A stretch of DNA of 64,000 nucleotides from a virus (taxonomy: Duplodnaviria > Caudoviricetes). A program made the position numbers and the translations under genes. Shown in pieces: positions 766 to 9,110 of this stretch (position 1 is the first letter of the stretch; each line of letters starts with the position of its first letter). Where the stretch lies: IMG/VR virus record IMGVR_UViG_3300031466_000001, positions 1 to 64,000 of that record, one strand, 5' to 3'. Below the pieces are notes generated by a model. It was given only the letters and a program-made list of their open reading frames with translations. It was not told where the DNA came from and searched no databases.

Positions 766-821
766 TTTTACACCTCCGCAATACCTGAAGCATTAGGTAA
801 TTATTTTGTTTATACACGAAA

Positions 822-831
822 ATAATGTATA
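822..831 (-). promoter_or_regulatory. Early-type promoter motif (TATACATTAT)
   Basis: Same motif as at 58910. Confidence 0.55.
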
Positions 832-886
832 ATTTTATATGCTTAAAATACGATTTTTTCAGTTATTATAATGAATTGTATTTTTC

Positions 887-1237
887 TTACATTAAAGTCT
901 TTCTTTCAATTTGGATATAGATGTCCAAAATTCCTTCTTCCTCATCATCATTTGTCAATTCTAAATTGAAAAGATATAACTTCAAATCATCACTTTCCTT
1001 AAGTACTTCAAAAACATCGTCATCATATACCTCCTCATCGATATTTTGTGCCTCAAAATACGAACGAAGACAGTCAAGGATCAAGGATTCATTGAACTCA
1101 GAAAAGACGAATGTGCTTATTGCAGCGCGATGTTCACTGTCTCTCGTCTTTATAGGAATCCTATCAATAGTTCCAAAACTACTGATAGCTACATGATCAG
1201 TTATTGATACTACCCATATACTTTTATTTTGTGTCAT
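887..1237 (-). CDS. Hypothetical acidic protein (early)
   Basis: 116-aa ORF, AAGGA RBS, early motif at 1270-1279. Confidence 0.8.
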   Translation of the reverse strand: MTQNKSIWVVSITDHVAISSFGTIDRIPIKTRDSEHRAAISTFVFSEFNESLILDCLRSYFEAQNIDEEVYDDDVFEVLKESDDLKLYLFNLELTNDDEEEGILDIYIQIERKTLM

Positions 1238-1269
1238 TTTTTTTCATCCTTTCACTTTGTGCTGCAAAT

Positions 1270-1279
1270 ATAATATATA
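1270..1279 (-). promoter_or_regulatory. Early-type promoter motif TATATATTAT
   Basis: Exact motif upstream of the gene starting at 1237. Confidence 0.6.
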
Positions 1280-1333
1280 ATCGTGATTTACGACCATATT
1301 AAAAAATGAAATATTTTTTATTGTCTGATTTAT

Positions 1334-1345
1334 AACATAAAAATA
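1334..1345 (+). promoter_or_regulatory. Late-type promoter AACA-N6-TA
   Basis: AACA TAAAAA TA; no long ORF downstream. Confidence 0.55.
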
Positions 1346-1581
1346 ATGGGGCAGACAAAGGACCCCAGGAGGCTATAGGTGACAACAGCCGTCGACTTTG
1401 CCCTATAGTATCAAAACTTTTGTCGTTTTCCCAAGAAATACTTGGGACAACGATCCCAAGTTGAGGGAATTTTATTATTAAAATTAATTAAAATAAAAAT
1501 AAAACGGTCAATCTTAGATCTATTAAAATCCCACTAGAAGAAATGGGGTTTTGATAGATTTGAGATTGACCGTTTTTTATT
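1345..1581 (+). ncRNA. Putative late structured RNA with a 9-codon ORF and a long 3-prime hairpin
   Basis: GC-richer than the flanks; helices 1346-1355/1397-1406, 1373-1379/1402-1408 and 1422-1435/1441-1454; 32-bp stem 1501-1532/1545-1576 whose four non-Watson-Crick pairs are all G.U on the + strand. Confidence 0.55.
1379..1408 (+). CDS. Micro-ORF MTTAVDFAL (9 aa)
   Basis: AGGAGG at 1367-1372 and GTG at 1379, 34 nt after the late promoter, matching the spacing of other late genes. Confidence 0.4.
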   Translation: MTTAVDFAL

Positions 1582-1588
1582 TGTGTTT

Positions 1589-1873
1589 TTAGCAGAAATT
1601 TTCATAGTCTATAATTTCTTTAATTAGATTATCTCTTGAGAATATTTGTTCATATAGCGAATTATCCATTATATTTTCCAATGTAGGTATAATGTGGTTG
1701 ATATTTAATATAACAGGAGAACGATATATTCCTTCTCTTAATAAATTATGATCAAATAATTTATGTAGTTTACTAACGAATTCTTCTTTATTTTCTTCTT
1801 TTTCATAAATTGCATATCTACACACATCTTTATACCTGACAGCAGCACCAATAACAAACCTTTTTTTGATCAT
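1589..1873 (-). CDS. Hypothetical protein
   Basis: 94-aa ORF with phage-like composition. Confidence 0.65.
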   Translation of the reverse strand: MIKKRFVIGAAVRYKDVCRYAIYEKEENKEEFVSKLHKLFDHNLLREGIYRSPVILNINHIIPTLENIMDNSLYEQIFSRDNLIKEIIDYENFC

Positions 1874-1973
1874 CTTTTCCCTATATACTATAGACTCAGA
1901 AAATAATTTTAATTTATTTGGACTAGGTACATTTAATAATTCTTCGAGAAAACGTATATATAATTAAACAATT

Positions 1974-2456
1974 TTATATTCCTATACGAATTTTGTTAAT
2001 GATATCTGACAAGTATTCTCCAGGTCCAAGAATTATATGATTAATAAATCTCCCGTCACTCATTAATCCTCTGATAAAAACATCCCAATTTTCATTTAGA
2101 AGTTTGATGAACTTTTCATCACTACCCCTTACACGAAATCTTTCAAGATATTCATCTTTGAGTTCGATTAGCGGGTAGACGAGATATGGTTGAAAACCTT
2201 CTTTGAAAAGAGAATCCAGAACTTCTTTATGCGTTGATACTAGAATGATGTCGGCATTATGTAAATTTGAGGAGATGTGATTAATATAGTTTGCTGGGAA
2301 CTCAGGATTTCGAACTCCCGGAGAAATCCAACTAAATTTACTGCTATCAGAATCCATAATTTTAAGTCCCAAAGATTTCTGGTTCTTAGTCAGAGTGGAT
2401 TTACCTACTCCCGGAAAACCACAGATAATTTTTGCCAGTTCTTTCATTTTTATCAT
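1974..2456 (-). CDS. P-loop NTPase / nucleotide-kinase-like protein
   Basis: N-terminal Walker A IICGFPGVGKS followed by DSDSS. Confidence 0.75.
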   Translation of the reverse strand: MIKMKELAKIICGFPGVGKSTLTKNQKSLGLKIMDSDSSKFSWISPGVRNPEFPANYINHISSNLHNADIILVSTHKEVLDSLFKEGFQPYLVYPLIELKDEYLERFRVRGSDEKFIKLLNENWDVFIRGLMSDGRFINHIILGPGEYLSDIINKIRIGI

Positions 2457-2557
2457 ACTCCGTTTAGATGATAAATTAAATAAATGTAATTTATATAATC
2501 ATTTTTAAAATGAATGATTCGGTATAATTATATAAACAAAGGGTTAAAAATAAGGGG

Positions 2558-3067
2558 GTGGACATATTGGCTTCTTCGTTCAGTCCCACAAAACCATCGT
2601 TTTATATTTTTATTAAAGGGATGCCTGAGATCATTGGGAGGGAATTCCCTAATTTTTCCAATACTATGACGAAAATGATCGAAGCCCTTACTTTTAACGT
2701 GGAATTATTTAAAAAAGATAAAGATGAGACCGAACTATTGATTACAATTTTTGAACTTGAGGGGGAACCCGTTGCTAATTTATTTAACCTTCTTCGGTAT
2801 TTATTCATTATTTCAAACGGAGAAGAAAATTATTTTAGGGATACTATTGAGGAAAAATTTGGTATAGATATGTATTTAGTTAAAACTGTAGATGGAAAAA
2901 TAGAGGATGCTTGCAAATTAAATGGTCTGATTGTTAAATCAATTGATGATGAAGAAATTGAACATTCTGGAATGGCTGGGGTTGTATGTCGTAAAGTTAA
3001 AATGATAACAAGGCATAAGCATAATCTCACCGAAGAAGAATTCGATGAAATAAAAAAATTGATGTGA
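2558..3067 (+). CDS. Hypothetical protein
   Basis: 169-aa ORF with RBS. Confidence 0.75.
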   Translation: MDILASSFSPTKPSFYIFIKGMPEIIGREFPNFSNTMTKMIEALTFNVELFKKDKDETELLITIFELEGEPVANLFNLLRYLFIISNGEENYFRDTIEEKFGIDMYLVKTVDGKIEDACKLNGLIVKSIDDEEIEHSGMAGVVCRKVKMITRHKHNLTEEEFDEIKKLM

Positions 3068-3121
3068 ATCTATGAATTGAAAATCAATATTTTGGCTTTA
3101 CTTTTAATATTTCCGATCACC

Positions 3122-3133
3122 AACAATGTGGTA
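3122..3133 (+). promoter_or_regulatory. Late-type promoter AACA-N6-TA
   Basis: AACA ATGTGG TA, 29 nt before the RNAP beta start. Confidence 0.7.
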
Positions 3134-3161
3134 AGTATACCATATTTGTGAGGTGATCGGA

Positions 3162-6100
3162 ATGATTTTTGTGGATTCTACACCACATCTTAGAGTTTAT
3201 AGACAAAGAGTAATTTTTCCGGTAGATCCTAAAATGCCGAGTAAGGGAAGTATGGCATTTATTATCAATAATGATATTGAGTCCTCTATTGCACTGATTA
3301 ATAGTAATAGAATTTCCCATAATAATCGTTTCCATATATATTTCATGGATAATATCTATGAGGGCAGATTCTTTGGTCGTTATTTTAGGGAAAATAAAAC
3401 CAAAGAACGCTTTGATCTATATGAAAAAGTCCAAGCTAAAGCTGGTAACATTATTTGTCAAAATAGCTTTGTCTCTATCGGTGGTAGAAACTTCTTTTTT
3501 GATCTTATTATGATCCATGAGATTTTCTTTAAAATTGCCGCAAAGAAAGTTGTTCCATATCGTATTAAATCAGAGCAATATATTGATTTTCTTAAAAATA
3601 TTTTTAACGATCAGAGATTCAATCAATACAGTAAAAAAATCATTCTTATTGATGTCAATTCCTGGGTTAAAAATATAAAGAAAGAAATTAAAGGGCGTAA
3701 ATTTTTTGACAATCCAATCTTCTTGTTATATTTTGCAATGACGAAAAACTTTAATAAATTCAAAGAGCTTGGAGATATGAATATTATCTTCTATTCGAAC
3801 GATATCTCCCTTAGATTGAATCCTTCCCTTGCGGATAAAATGTCTTATTCTCTTTTCCGCAATGAAATCTCGAAATTAACTGGTAAAATCACCCTCCCTG
3901 ATGAAAATACGATTGATAAAGAGCTCCAAAAAGATGAAGTCTTTGATGAAGTTATCAAAAACTTTTCTCAACATTACAGATTTACTGGCGATGATGAAGA
4001 ATCGGATAGTGAATTTGAAGAAAAAGTAAGAGATCGCCTCGATGAAATGACCGAAGAAAATAAAGAGCTCGGAAGTCTTGAAGGGAAAGAACTTGAAGAG
4101 CGTTTAACCAATGAACTTTTAGGCGACCAGAAAATTCTCAAAGATTTGAATGAAATTATCACTCAAAATCGTGTAGGTAAAAATATCGCATCTACCAAAC
4201 GAGATGAAGTACTCAGGGAGAAACAAAAAGAGCTCAAATTAGAAAATCAAACTCTCGAAGATCTGCAAAAAATGCTCGATAGATCTGCTACTCTTGAGAG
4301 CTATTCTGTTGAAGATAAAGTAAAAACGACAAATAAAAATGTTACTAAAATCAGATACCCTAATTTTGAAAAATCTTATAATGAAAAACTTTTTAGGCAG
4401 GATATGCTTAATATTCTCTTGTCGTTAAATGATAAATCTATTCCTATCTATATTAGAGATATTAAAGTGGAAGATACATCAGATGAGCTTAACTATAGAG
4501 ACACATATACGGTTCAGCTTGAAGATGCTAACCGTGTTCGACATACATTAAAATTTGACATGCCTAAATTCATTGACGATAAATTCATGTATATTAATGG
4601 CAACAAAAAGCTGATTATCAAGCAGCTTCTTATGAAACCTATCACTAAAACCGGACCTGATGAGGTTCAGATCGTATCTAACTATAATAAGATCTTCATT
4701 CGTAGATACGGACAAAAGACATCTTCTAAATTGGAGAAGTTTAAAAAGGCTATTTCCAAGACAAAAACTTCAGCTAACATTGTAGTTAAAAATGGCAATA
4801 ACCTTAAAGCAAATAGTAAATATCTCACGACCATTGAATATGACGAATTGGCTAAAGATTATACCAGCATTAGAATCAAAAAAACGGAATTTCTGTTCAA
4901 TCAGGATGAAGTTCGAAAAATTCTTGAAGAGAAAAAGATTAAAATTAATGACAATGAGTTGTGCATAGGTTTCATTGATAATAAAACACCGATTATCGTT
5001 AACCTTGATACGCAATTAATCGGTGATATGGATATCATTGATTTTATCCTTTCTATCGAAGCAGGTAAACCTATCAGGGACGTTTATGAAGGGGAAACAA
5101 GCGGTAAGAAATTTGTTTATTCTCGTGCTACTATAATGGCTAAGCAGGTTCCGGTTATTCTTCTTCTCGGTTATCTTGAAGGTCTTTCAACTATCCTGCG
5201 TAAAGCAGAAATTAAACACTATTTCACAGATAAACGTCCTCGTGACCTCACCGATAACCAAGGTGTAGTCCAATTTTCGGATGGTTTTCTGGTTTATGAA
5301 AAGTATCCGTTTGAAAATTCCCTTCTTATGAATGCATTTGCAGATATTCCTACAAAGGGATTCTCATATGCAGATTTTGATAGTAAAGAAGTTTACCTCG
5401 ACATTTTCGATACTATGTTTGGGACCAGAATTATAGGTAATGCATTCGATAACTTCTATGAATTGATGATCGATCCGATTACCAAGGAAGTTCTGGAAGA
5501 TCTCAATCTTCCCACTGATTTCGTCAATGTTGTTTTATATGCAAACTCATTGCTTGCCGACAACTCATATCTTAAAGAAAACAATATGAGTCTTTATCGC
5601 ATAAGATCTAATGAGCTTGTTAATGCATATCTCTATAAGGCAATTGCAACAGCTTATATTCAGTATAGACTGACCGCAAATAATAATAATCCTGTTAAAA
5701 TGTCAGTACCAAGAGATGTTGTAATAAAACAGATTTTGATGGCTCAAACGGTCGAAGATTACAGCACGTTGAATCCCATTGTTGAACTTGAAAAATCTCG
5801 TGCTATCACTCCTAAGGGACCCAGTGGCCTTAACCTGGAACAAGCGTACACACAGGATAAACGTTCTTATGATAGATCTATGCTTGGAATTATCGCAATG
5901 TCTACTTCACCTGACGCTAACGTAGGCGTGGTTAGACAATTGACGCTTGAACCTAGTATCAAGAGTCCGCGGGGCTATATTGAGATTGCAGGAGAAAATC
6001 TCGATCATCTTAAAGATGCAAATCTATTCTCTCCTGCGGAACTCCTCTCTCCTCTTGGCGTAACCCGCGACGACTCTAACCGTACAGCTATGGCTACAAA

Positions 6101-7331
6101 ACAATCAAAACACATTATTCCTGTAGAAAAAGCATCTCCAGTACTTATTTCCAATGGTGCTGAACAAATTATCCCGTATCATCTTTCCAACGATTTTACT
6201 GTTGTTGCGAAAGCAGATGGTGAAGTTGTTGAAGTAAATGAAGAGGCGGGATTAATTATTATAGGATATTATTCTGAAGATAAAAAAGCTGGTTCGAAGA
6301 AGACAAAAGCTGGTATTAGTTCTTATCAATCGATCGATATCAGTCCTCGCATCGTAAAGAACGGTGCGGGTGGCTTCTATCTTTCGAATAAACTTATTTG
6401 TAATCTTAAAGTTGGAGACAAATTTAAGAAAAATGACATTATTGCATCTGATGAAAAATTCTTCACTCGATCTAAAATCGATGGAACCAGATTTAATATT
6501 GGTTCCTTGCAGAAAATAGCATGCATGTCTAGTTACTCGACATATGAAGATTCTACGTTTATCACAAAGAAACTTACTGAGGATATGGCTTCCGAGATAG
6601 TAATGTGTAAAACTATTACTCTGGGTAAGAATGCAAACGTGGACTTTTTGGTCAAACCCGGAGATAATATTACTGTCGGAGACGATCTCATTAGATTTGA
6701 GATCTCTTTCGAAGATGATAGCCTTAATAAATTCCTTGAAACTGTAGGTGAAAATGTTAAAGAGGAAATCAAGTCTCTTGGTAAAACACCCATCAAATCT
6801 AAATATACTGGTGTAATTGAAGACGTTAAAGTGTACTCTACCGTAGAGCTTGATGAGCTTTCTCCATCTCTGAGAAAAATTGTCAGCAATTATTATAAGC
6901 GCATTGATAGAAAGAAAAATATTATCAATAAATATGATAAATCTAATTCTGTATACAAAATGGGAGTTCTTCTCAACGAACCTACAGGTAAGATAGAAAC
7001 TAAAGATGGTAAAGTTAAAGGTAATGAAGTTGGAGAAGGTGTTCTCATTGAAATTTATATCAAATACCGTGACGTAATGGGTATTGGTGACAAACTTGCA
7101 TTCTTTACTGCATTGAAGAGTATTAACGGGGAAATTATTCCTGAAGGGTATGAACCGTTCTCGGAATATAGACCCAATGAGGAAGTATCTTCATTCGTTG
7201 CTCCTGGTGCAGTATTGGCACGTATGACACCATCTATTCTCCTGACTATGTTTGGTAATAAAGTTTTGGTTGAATTGAAACGACATTTGCAGGAAATTTA
7301 TACAGGAAAACCTTGGGAACCTACAAAATAA
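3162..7331 (+). CDS. rpoB: Phage multisubunit RNA polymerase beta subunit, large N-terminal part (virion type, phiKZ gp178-like)
   Basis: Motifs FDMPKF..FMYINGNKK, GPSGL..RSYDRSMLG..SPDANVGVV, RTAMATKQSKH, TYEDST, GIGDKL and PGAVLARM; the C-terminal beta region is absent; about 400-aa N-terminal extension; late promoter. Confidence 0.92.
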   Translation: MIFVDSTPHLRVYRQRVIFPVDPKMPSKGSMAFIINNDIESSIALINSNRISHNNRFHIYFMDNIYEGRFFGRYFRENKTKERFDLYEKVQAKAGNIICQNSFVSIGGRNFFFDLIMIHEIFFKIAAKKVVPYRIKSEQYIDFLKNIFNDQRFNQYSKKIILIDVNSWVKNIKKEIKGRKFFDNPIFLLYFAMTKNFNKFKELGDMNIIFYSNDISLRLNPSLADKMSYSLFRNEISKLTGKITLPDENTIDKELQKDEVFDEVIKNFSQHYRFTGDDEESDSEFEEKVRDRLDEMTEENKELGSLEGKELEERLTNELLGDQKILKDLNEIITQNRVGKNIASTKRDEVLREKQKELKLENQTLEDLQKMLDRSATLESYSVEDKVKTTNKNVTKIRYPNFEKSYNEKLFRQDMLNILLSLNDKSIPIYIRDIKVEDTSDELNYRDTYTVQLEDANRVRHTLKFDMPKFIDDKFMYINGNKKLIIKQLLMKPITKTGPDEVQIVSNYNKIFIRRYGQKTSSKLEKFKKAISKTKTSANIVVKNGNNLKANSKYLTTIEYDELAKDYTSIRIKKTEFLFNQDEVRKILEEKKIKINDNELCIGFIDNKTPIIVNLDTQLIGDMDIIDFILSIEAGKPIRDVYEGETSGKKFVYSRATIMAKQVPVILLLGYLEGLSTILRKAEIKHYFTDKRPRDLTDNQGVVQFSDGFLVYEKYPFENSLLMNAFADIPTKGFSYADFDSKEVYLDIFDTMFGTRIIGNAFDNFYELMIDPITKEVLEDLNLPTDFVNVVLYANSLLADNSYLKENNMSLYRIRSNELVNAYLYKAIATAYIQYRLTANNNNPVKMSVPRDVVIKQILMAQTVEDYSTLNPIVELEKSRAITPKGPSGLNLEQAYTQDKRSYDRSMLGIIAMSTSPDANVGVVRQLTLEPSIKSPRGYIEIAGENLDHLKDANLFSPAELLSPLGVTRDDSNRTAMATKQSKHIIPVEKASPVLISNGAEQIIPYHLSNDFTVVAKADGEVVEVNEEAGLIIIGYYSEDKKAGSKKTKAGISSYQSIDISPRIVKNGAGGFYLSNKLICNLKVGDKFKKNDIIASDEKFFTRSKIDGTRFNIGSLQKIACMSSYSTYEDSTFITKKLTEDMASEIVMCKTITLGKNANVDFLVKPGDNITVGDDLIRFEISFEDDSLNKFLETVGENVKEEIKSLGKTPIKSKYTGVIEDVKVYSTVELDELSPSLRKIVSNYYKRIDRKKNIINKYDKSNSVYKMGVLLNEPTGKIETKDGKVKGNEVGEGVLIEIYIKYRDVMGIGDKLAFFTALKSINGEIIPEGYEPFSEYRPNEEVSSFVAPGAVLARMTPSILLTMFGNKVLVELKRHLQEIYTGKPWEPTK

Positions 7332-8177: not shown

Positions 8178-9110
8178 ATGGGTATTGTCGATATTTACTT
8201 TAATAATCTTGTCGAAAAGATCATTCAACATGGTAAATGGCAACGGCAAGAGGACGTGCGGGCAATTTGGGAAGATGGGTCTCCGGCAATAGCTAAATCT
8301 GTCATTGACGTTCAATGGAAATTTGATAATGATGAACTTCTTTATCCCACCACAAAAAAATTTTATCCAATGAGTGCTATTCGGGAAATACGATGGATTT
8401 GGCAGAAAAAGTCTAATAGGTTGGAAGAACTTAGAAAATTGAATAAAAGTGATACTAGTATATGGGATAAATGGGAATACAAAAATGGTGACTGGGCTGG
8501 AACTATTGGTCCAGCATATGGCTACGTTCTTTCTAGAAAAATTAGACGTTGGAAATTAAAAGATATTAATCAAGATCACCTCGATCCAAATTCAGATCAG
8601 GTGATCGTTAGAGAAGACGGAGAGTATTTTATCTATCTTGATCAAGTAGATCATTTGATCCAGTCATTATTGAGATCTCCCGGCTCTAGAAGAAATCTAA
8701 CGACATTATGGGTTCCTGAATATTTGGATGAAATGAAGTTAACCCCTTGTGTCTGGAGTACTCAATGGAATTTTTGGGGTGGAAAATTAAATCTTACAGT
8801 TAATATTAGATCAAATGATATATGCGTTGGGAATCCATTTAATGTTTTCCAATATCAGGTTTTACAAATGATGATTTCTAAGATAGTCAATATTCCTATG
8901 GGTACAATTACATTTAATATTGCAGACGCTCACGTCTATGATCGTCATATTGATTTGGCGAAACAGCAAATCATAGAACCTATACAAGAGGCACCAAAAC
9001 TTATTTTAAATCCAGACATTAAAAACTTCTACGAATTTGATGATAAAGATTTCATTATTATAGATAAACCTCAAAATGTTAAAAGGTATGATTACGAGGT
9101 GGCTATATGA
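8178..9110 (+). CDS. thyA: Thymidylate synthase, B. subtilis ThyA/phi3T ThyP3 class
   Basis: VRAIWEDGSPA, SRR, LTPC (catalytic Cys), RSND..GNPFNVFQY (dUMP-specifying Asn), HVYDRH, C-terminal EVAI. Confidence 0.95.
   Translation: MGIVDIYFNNLVEKIIQHGKWQRQEDVRAIWEDGSPAIAKSVIDVQWKFDNDELLYPTTKKFYPMSAIREIRWIWQKKSNRLEELRKLNKSDTSIWDKWEYKNGDWAGTIGPAYGYVLSRKIRRWKLKDINQDHLDPNSDQVIVREDGEYFIYLDQVDHLIQSLLRSPGSRRNLTTLWVPEYLDEMKLTPCVWSTQWNFWGGKLNLTVNIRSNDICVGNPFNVFQYQVLQMMISKIVNIPMGTITFNIADAHVYDRHIDLAKQQIIEPIQEAPKLILNPDIKNFYEFDDKDFIIIDKPQNVKRYDYEVAI

Follow-up and report, generated by a model that had tools for sequence, protein, structure and literature searches.

A candidate late gene for a conserved structured RNA in AR9/PBS1-like jumbo phages

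Positions 1334-1586 of a metagenomic jumbo-phage sequence probably constitute a stand-alone late gene for a non-coding structured RNA of about 240 nt. Comparison of homologs shows that the 126-nt core of this RNA (1345-1470, plus strand) is under purifying selection as a plus-strand RNA in a clade of jumbo phages, while the transcription, the ends and the abundance of the molecule are predicted. The family consists of the window, i.e. the whole stretch of 64,000 nt that was analysed (positions 1 to 64,000 of the IMG/VR virus record IMGVR_UViG_3300031466_000001), and of ten other distinct metagenomic jumbo phages, with virion RNA polymerase (RNAP) beta subunits that are 50-69% identical.

Viral gene expression that does not depend on the host has a model in the jumbo phages that carry two multisubunit RNA polymerases. 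The RNA family makes a concrete candidate for regulation by RNA in such phages, and it is ready to be added to RNA family databases. Moreover, the late promoter rule of phage AR9 seems to extend to distant uncultivated relatives, and the leader of the neighbouring virion RNAP gene appears to reveal a T4-like masking of the ribosome-binding site.

Genomic setting and late promoter

The window, which is AT-rich, comes from an uncultivated jumbo phage of the AR9/PBS1 type. An RNA polymerase beta-like protein of 1392 aa, encoded at 3153-7331, matches the PHROG RNAP-beta families; its best known relatives belong to the Bacillus phages PBS1, AR9 and Goe21, with 38% identity, and its AR9 ortholog, g189, is annotated as the virion RNAP beta subunit. 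The RNA locus is flanked by two minus-strand genes, at 887-1237 and at 1589-1873, the latter convergent with the RNA and ending at 1589; no relatives of the two flanking proteins were found outside their own 90% clusters. The third gene, at 1974-2456, is homologous to g174, a gene that belongs to an early operon in AR9. The gene at 887-1237 has its own early promoter, with an exact AR9-type core (TATATATTAT, 1270-1279, minus strand) lying beyond the RNA locus. Seen from the minus strand, the locus therefore falls between a terminator and a promoter, and seen from the plus strand it is flanked by a late promoter and a terminator, an arrangement which speaks for its autonomy.

The surroundings of the locus vary among strains. 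Within the region at approximately 1589-1970, the ORF of 94 aa is called as 78, 87, 161, 167, 192, 225 or 227 aa across near-identical strains, and indels in and around it separate the window from L002, L014-L016, L024, L025 and L027. To the right of approximately 1959-1966 the strains diverge fully and carry other small genes instead of the ATPase gene, so that the interval between the RNA and the RNAP operon, occupied here by the early cassette, can be regarded as a hotspot of accessory genes. At the left end of the window, positions 1-100 are a near-pure A+T tandem or palindromic array (2% GC, with units such as ATATTAATAATA), which is followed by a bidirectional terminator at approximately 198-232.

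In AR9, late promoters, recognised by the non-virion RNAP, were mapped experimentally as AACA-N6-TA/G, the final base being the start site; the early class has the consensus AAATATATATTAT-N6-G (Lavysh et al. 2017, PMC5312081). An exact match to the late motif, AACATAAAAATA, occupies 1334-1345 on the plus strand; it is intergenic, correctly oriented for the RNA and predicts a start at A1345. Like other late promoters of the window, it is preceded by a T-tract (approximately 1313-1320). The first-pass annotation had pointed to an exact late promoter with no normal gene behind it, and the promoter is kept in the whole family: AACA-N6-TA marks the 5' end of the RNA in all 11 members, with the +1 position two nucleotides before the first helix. 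A further 16 copies of the motif occur 25-45 nt upstream of gene starts in the window, usually as AAACA-N6-TAA with a T-tract upstream, so that this phage, too, follows the rule for late promoters established in AR9. We infer that the RNA would be transcribed late by the non-virion multisubunit RNAP of the phage.

The late promoter motif is read on uracil-containing template DNA in AR9. The window phage encodes a thymidylate synthase (8178-9110) despite the presence of the same motif, and its template may be either T-DNA or U-DNA.

A conserved fold on the plus strand

Homologs were collected by a protein search with the RNAP beta sequence, which gave access to the DNA around relatives at 59-73% identity, and by gathering 24 additional IMG/VR loci through the RNAP alignment. 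With window positions 1330-1600 as the query, nhmmer recovered L030 (E 1.7e-18), L031 (9.6e-10) and L032 (3.2e-9), all on the RNAP strand. A covariance model built from five training sequences (R1) then yielded six full-length matches outside its training set (L038, L061, L062, L063/L064, L065 and G006, i.e. L068). Models R1 and R2 score the window core at 124 bits and define the members besides the window as L030, L031, L036 (G002), L037 (G003), L038 (G004), L061, L062, L063, L065 and L068 (G006). All homologs are on the RNAP strand, with the promoter placed exactly at the 5' end. The complete genomes G002 and G003 carry one copy each, and no further copy or repeat of the element is present within the window. 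A third model (R3), trained on the nine other members with the window and L030 left out, recovered positions 1345-1470 of the window at 92.4 bits (E 4.4e-19) with 32 of 32 pairs standard; the family alignment holds 11 sequences, and model E-values are rough. Nine further loci (L034, L035, L076, L077 and L079-L083) were rejected by model R2, the first two of them also by alignment.

The element was found only in related phages. No match was obtained by the model search in the AR9 genome, AR9 being the only relative with RNA-seq data, nor in 20 more distant jumbo-phage records with RNAP beta at most 47% identical. Likewise, a blastn search of window positions 800-2600 against 50,697 phage records gave no match, an exact-word scan over viral contigs was negative, and three degenerate-pattern scans of three large collections returned only the known contigs and false positives. 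The nearest virus record, G001, does not span the RNA region. These searches leave the family at 11 distinct members forming one clade.

The consensus fold consists of a 5'-terminal hairpin, a long bulged stem and a helix enclosing a further hairpin. P1 (1347-1351 with 1363-1367) begins at +3, and all five of its pairs are kept across the family, four being changed on both sides; GGGG/CCCC in the window, for example, becomes GATG/CATC in L030. At the junction of P1 and P2 lies the sequence AGGAGG (1367-1372), kept in nine of the 11 members, replaced by GGGAGG in L063 and degenerate (UAAGGU) in L068. It is partly paired, through G1369-C1412 (10 members) and the invariant G1372.U1409. The long stem P2 (1369-1388 with 1396-1412), to which the arms CTATAGG and CCTATAG belong, is paired in 89.8% of alignment cells and has 10 of 16 pairs double-changed. 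It includes an invariant motif made of the bulged U1380 and A1382 and of the non-covarying pairs G1381-C1401 and C1383-G1400, and its loop ends in GAC in all members but one. P3 joins CCC at 1430-1432 to GGG at 1465-1467 and is paired in every member, the GGG arm being part of a conserved UGAGG (UUGAGGGA in the window); it encloses the P4 hairpin (1440-1447 with 1454-1461; 96% paired, five of eight pairs double-changed). The core is followed by an AU-rich linker (1471-1500), which is not conserved and carries a strain variant at 1493/1494.

A small hairpin of the form (A)UAC-ACUC-GUA(U), with a conserved ACUC loop, lies just 3' of the core in four members (L037 9924-9940, L065 5927-5943, L038 9871-9888 and L068 1625-1640); the window is without it.

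The region 1334-1600 has a minimum free energy of -95 kcal/mol, compared with -50.3 +/- 4.9 for shuffled sequences (z = -9.1), and its minus strand folds 12 kcal/mol worse than the plus strand. In the 11-sequence alignment, which had been fitted to the covariance model, 92.7% of cells are standard pairs and 20 of the 32 pairs are double-changed, in 56 cells. None of 500 shuffles equalled these pairing and double-change values, and sliding the partners by 1-3 columns as a control reduced pairing to 35-45%. An independent alignment with MAFFT, folded with RNAalifold, gave helices that are essentially the same; of their 31 pairs, 21 are double-changed. Furthermore, the promoter and the core align between homologs while the surrounding intergenic DNA does not. 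G.U cells number 36 in the family alignment against four A.C cells, which identifies the plus-strand RNA as the molecule under selection. The first-pass annotation had proposed selection on a plus-strand RNA on the basis of one sequence; the family covariation, the G.U bias and the promoter at each 5' end bear this proposal out, and the upstream helices, whose lack of conservation it had named as a ground for refutation, are conserved.

Strain variation agrees with constraint on the same segment. Through the clusters of the flanking proteins, 28 metagenome contigs were gathered, which match window positions 800-2100 with 98.3-100% identity. They hold 53 variable columns in 1300 nt, none of them within 1324-1492, which covers the promoter and the core. 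Because the strains are so similar, this lack of polymorphism is modest and only suggestive evidence of constraint, and the contigs are of no use for covariation.

Two switching elements had also been proposed. The competing 10-bp helix between 1346-1355 and 1397-1406 (eight Watson-Crick and two G.U pairs) does occur in the window, as does TCCCAAG on both sides of CTTGGGA, which would give mutually exclusive hairpins. Neither is retained by the family: neither shows covariation, and the two alternative pairings reach 60.0% and 71.7% against 59.3% and 70.4% in shuffles. Bistability is thus at most a property of the window sequence alone.

Part of the core also bears a striking resemblance to a translation start. 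A 9-codon ORF from GTG to TAG (1379-1408, plus strand; MTTAVDFAL*) lies inside P2, and AGGAGG (GGGAGG in L063), a 6-nt spacer and GTG or ATG are kept in 10 of the 11 members, a spacing ideal for Gram-positive ribosomes. This could denote a genuine start, with a micropeptide or leader peptide as the functional product or with the act of translation as the function. Such a reading, which the first-pass annotation had entertained as a micropeptide gene, is very unlikely, since the predicted products are not conserved as coding units. ORFs read from AGGAGG-N6-RUG span 5, 9, 10, 18, 26, 26, 27, 37, 38 and 41 codons, end at unrelated places and share only the residues 'MT', their sequences being otherwise unrelated. 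The frame is shifted by a 1-nt indel in L030, the closest relative, the Shine-Dalgarno (SD) sequence is degenerate in L068, and in most members stops interrupt all six frames of the core. Moreover, helix formation takes up the start codon and half of the SD. The R of RUG shows covariation with the base it pairs with (G-C in six members, A-U in five), and the U and G are part of the invariant bulge-and-pair motif. The AGGAGG-N6-RUG arrangement is better explained as RNA structure or a recognition surface than as a translation start, although ribosomes may conceivably initiate there.

The 3' hairpin and the virion RNAP leader

Downstream of the linker, a 33-bp hairpin pairs 1501-1533 with 1544-1576 around the loop 1534-1543 and is followed by a T-tract (1577-1586). 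It contains 29 Watson-Crick and four G.U or U.G pairs (1515.1562, 1517.1560, 1524.1553 and 1529.1548), where the minus strand would have A.C. The long stem with four G.U pairs reported by the first-pass annotation is therefore present, although it measures 33 bp and not 32; the other sequence features which that annotation had listed were all found in place. The hairpin has a free energy of -49.6 on the plus strand against -35.5 on the minus strand, and is usable, with its T-tract, as a terminator or 3' structure of the RNA and, more weakly, by the minus-strand gene ending at 1589.

Long hairpins, mostly with a T-tract, follow the RNA in the window, L030, L036, L038, L062, L068 and perhaps L061 (six or seven of the 11 members). 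Those of L030, L036 and L061 are homologous or analogous to the window hairpin and share its plus-strand bias; in four genomes, where the hairpins are imperfect, the plus strand is better by 9-14 kcal/mol. In L036 and L061 the bias is found although no minus-strand gene ends there, which extends the G.U argument of the first-pass annotation to homologs and indicates that the stem does not serve solely as a minus-strand terminator. In the window and in G006, genes of the opposite strand flank the RNA on both sides, and a bidirectional terminator of its own is present.

These observations also bear on a sceptical account of the locus, in which the promoter is a chance match, the stem does no more than terminate the minus-strand gene that ends at 1589, and what remains either has no function or acts at the DNA level as a cruciform or protein-binding site. 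The motif AACA-N6-TA is not enriched across the whole window (44 sites against 56 expected), and the stem could indeed also terminate the minus-strand gene. Nevertheless, this account is extremely improbable: the promoter and core persist among phages whose RNAP beta subunits have diverged to the extent given above and whose intergenic DNA cannot be aligned, the covariation includes G.U pairs valid on one strand only, and the same arrangement recurs where no minus-strand gene ends. The proposal of a late phage small RNA made in the first-pass annotation is strongly supported by the family conservation, the promoter and the compensatory changes.

In nine of the 11 genomes the virion RNAP beta gene or operon follows the RNA on the same strand. 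It does so directly in eight, where 85-190 nt separate the end of the RNA from the RNAP beta start codon, and with one gene between in L030. In the window the two are separated by an early cassette on the opposite strand and by one gene. In G006 the RNA and the RNAP gene are 12 kb apart, and the RNA has a minus-strand gene on either side.

The RNAP beta gene has its own AACA-N6-TA promoter in all of the ten genomes examined (all members but G006). In eight of these ten, the promoter is enclosed by a hairpin in which the outer arms bring together an anti-SD mimic (UUUCGAUCACC) and the SD (GGUGAUCGAAA) as pairing partners. In the window this leader hairpin spans 3104-3155, with the AACA of the promoter at 3122 and the arms CCGATCACC and GGTGATCGG; an inner hairpin includes the N6-TA part of the promoter. 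The structure recurs in L031 (9955-10003), L036, L037, L061, L065, L030 and L063; pairing in its arms amounts to 80.6%, with compensatory changes at three pairs. The RNAP SD would be exposed only in transcripts starting at the internal promoter. The 5' arm is present only in transcripts started upstream, so that read-through from the RNA promoter is expected to be translationally silent for RNAP.

The conserved position raises the alternative of a cis-acting role, regulatory or stabilising, for the RNA as the 5' leader of the operon of virion RNAP beta. The RNA would then be the ancestral start of a long RNAP transcript, from which the window copy was cut off by the insertion of the early-gene cassette. 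We consider this unlikely, although it accounts for several observations besides the synteny in nine of the 11 copies. There is no terminator between the RNA and the RNAP leader in L031, L037, L063 and L065, and in these genomes the RNA must therefore be the 5' part of a longer transcript. The next gene of L030 is without a recognisable promoter of its own, and the placement of the 5' arm of the RNAP hairpin upstream of the proximal promoter implies that upstream-initiated transcripts must exist. Furthermore, an SD-like sequence near the 5' end is known to stabilise mRNA in Bacillus (STAB-SD).

On the other hand, the displaced copies in the window and G006 keep every helix and have their own terminators, the window scoring 92 bits in the leave-out model. 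A hairpin and T-tract follow the RNA in most genomes, and the core is not connected with the downstream hairpin by any alternative pairing. The masking of the RNAP ribosome-binding site in upstream-initiated transcripts also indicates that the RNA promoter does not serve RNAP translation; the RNA unit would be insulated from RNAP expression. For a riboswitch or attenuator, which would call for an expression platform that competes with the sensor domain for pairing, the position upstream of RNAP beta in nine of 11 genomes is to be set beside the gene's own promoter, the two copies without a downstream gene and the lack of covariation in the alternative pairings tested. We regard a stand-alone late RNA gene as the best-supported reading.

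Possible function and comparison with known systems

In the model proposed for this gene, the non-virion multisubunit RNAP would produce the RNA as a late transcript. In a Gram-positive host this RNA would be long-lived, the 5' hairpin together with the SD-like AGGAGG protecting it from 5'-to-3' decay. The RNA would then act in trans by binding protein, with the non-covarying bulged motif of P2 as the recognition site. This trans-acting, protein-binding mechanism, proposed from the anatomy of the RNA alone, is one possibility that we advance tentatively.

As for the partner, synteny points weakly to the virion RNAP or its expression. A more specific and improbable proposal makes the RNA a dedicated partner of the phage transcription or translation machinery. 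In one version it would hold newly made virion RNAP inactive, or enter the capsid together with it; in the other, the AGGAGG-N6-RUG start mimic locked in P2 would serve, late in infection, to titrate either a repressor of translation or a C-rich anti-SD small RNA. If either is true, this would be the first example of a regulatory RNA linked to the non-canonical multisubunit RNAPs with which jumbo phages transcribe. Duplex prediction for the RNA and the translation start of RNAP was uninformative, the predicted pairings being long, non-specific and inconsistent in position.

A separate unit was observed in the complete relative G002 (L091) at 154217-154330 on the plus strand, where an orphan late promoter (AACATATAAGTA) is followed by approximately 60 nt with C-runs and by a strong terminator. 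The unit lacks an ORF and may represent a second late small RNA; when it was considered as a C-rich partner RNA in that genome, no convincing complementarity was seen by eye.

Searches of the window against Rfam 15 gave no family match at the gathering threshold, including pRNA, 6S, CsrB/RsmZ-type RNAs, riboswitches and ribozymes, and at E <= 10 only miRNA- or snoRNA-like matches on the long hairpin. In four homologous loci no Rfam match fell within the core, the nearest being sraA (E 4.2), in L068 only, which reaches its last 20 nt or so. ARAGORN found no tRNA or tmRNA. A full-text literature search retrieved no paper describing such an RNA and no conserved structured RNA for the AR9-like group. 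Two known types of regulator were considered and rejected on their anatomy. A CsrB/RsmZ-like sponge has at least five exposed GGA motifs; here the several GGA motifs on which the first-pass annotation had based a protein sponge reduce to two conserved ones, in AGGAGG and in UGAGG/UUGAGGGA, both held in helices (P2 and P3). A 6S-like decoy of RNAP is a long rod whose large central bubble imitates an open promoter, which the consensus fold, with its three local domains, is not, and the 6S families of Rfam gave no match.

Among known systems, phage T4 offers a parallel for the neighbouring leader. The ribosome-binding site of its gene e (lysozyme) is masked in read-through transcripts; the likeness is with the RNAP beta leader hairpin and not with the RNA, and extends to eight of ten genomes with modest covariation, as judged from sequence.

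The RNA itself can be compared with the phi29 pRNA, the species 1 and 2 RNAs of T4 and the non-coding RNAs of PA5oct, which are likewise discrete, highly structured molecules of 100-250 nt with their own promoter, and in which the fold is conserved more than the sequence, as it is here. In small podoviruses the pRNA is transcribed early and assembles into a multimeric ring by loop-loop pairing; the window RNA has no match to it in Rfam.

As a transcription unit, the locus resembles the late units of AR9 and PBS1, with which it shares the promoter motif, the start rule, the T-rich upstream tract and the terminator made of a hairpin and T-tract (PMC5312081). As far as its text was covered, that account names no stand-alone structured non-coding RNA in AR9, only seven antisense late promoters and one tRNA. 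Unlike the AR9 late units, the unit in the window encodes no protein.

The 5' end of the RNA recalls the Gram-positive mRNA stabilisers, namely the STAB-SD of cryIIIA, the aprE leader and the SP82 polypurine stabiliser, which are short cis modules. In both cases a hairpin within 3 nt of the 5' end is followed by an SD-like AGGAGG without a conserved ORF. Here, in contrast, the module heads a 126-nt multi-helix RNA, which in two genomes stands without a downstream gene.
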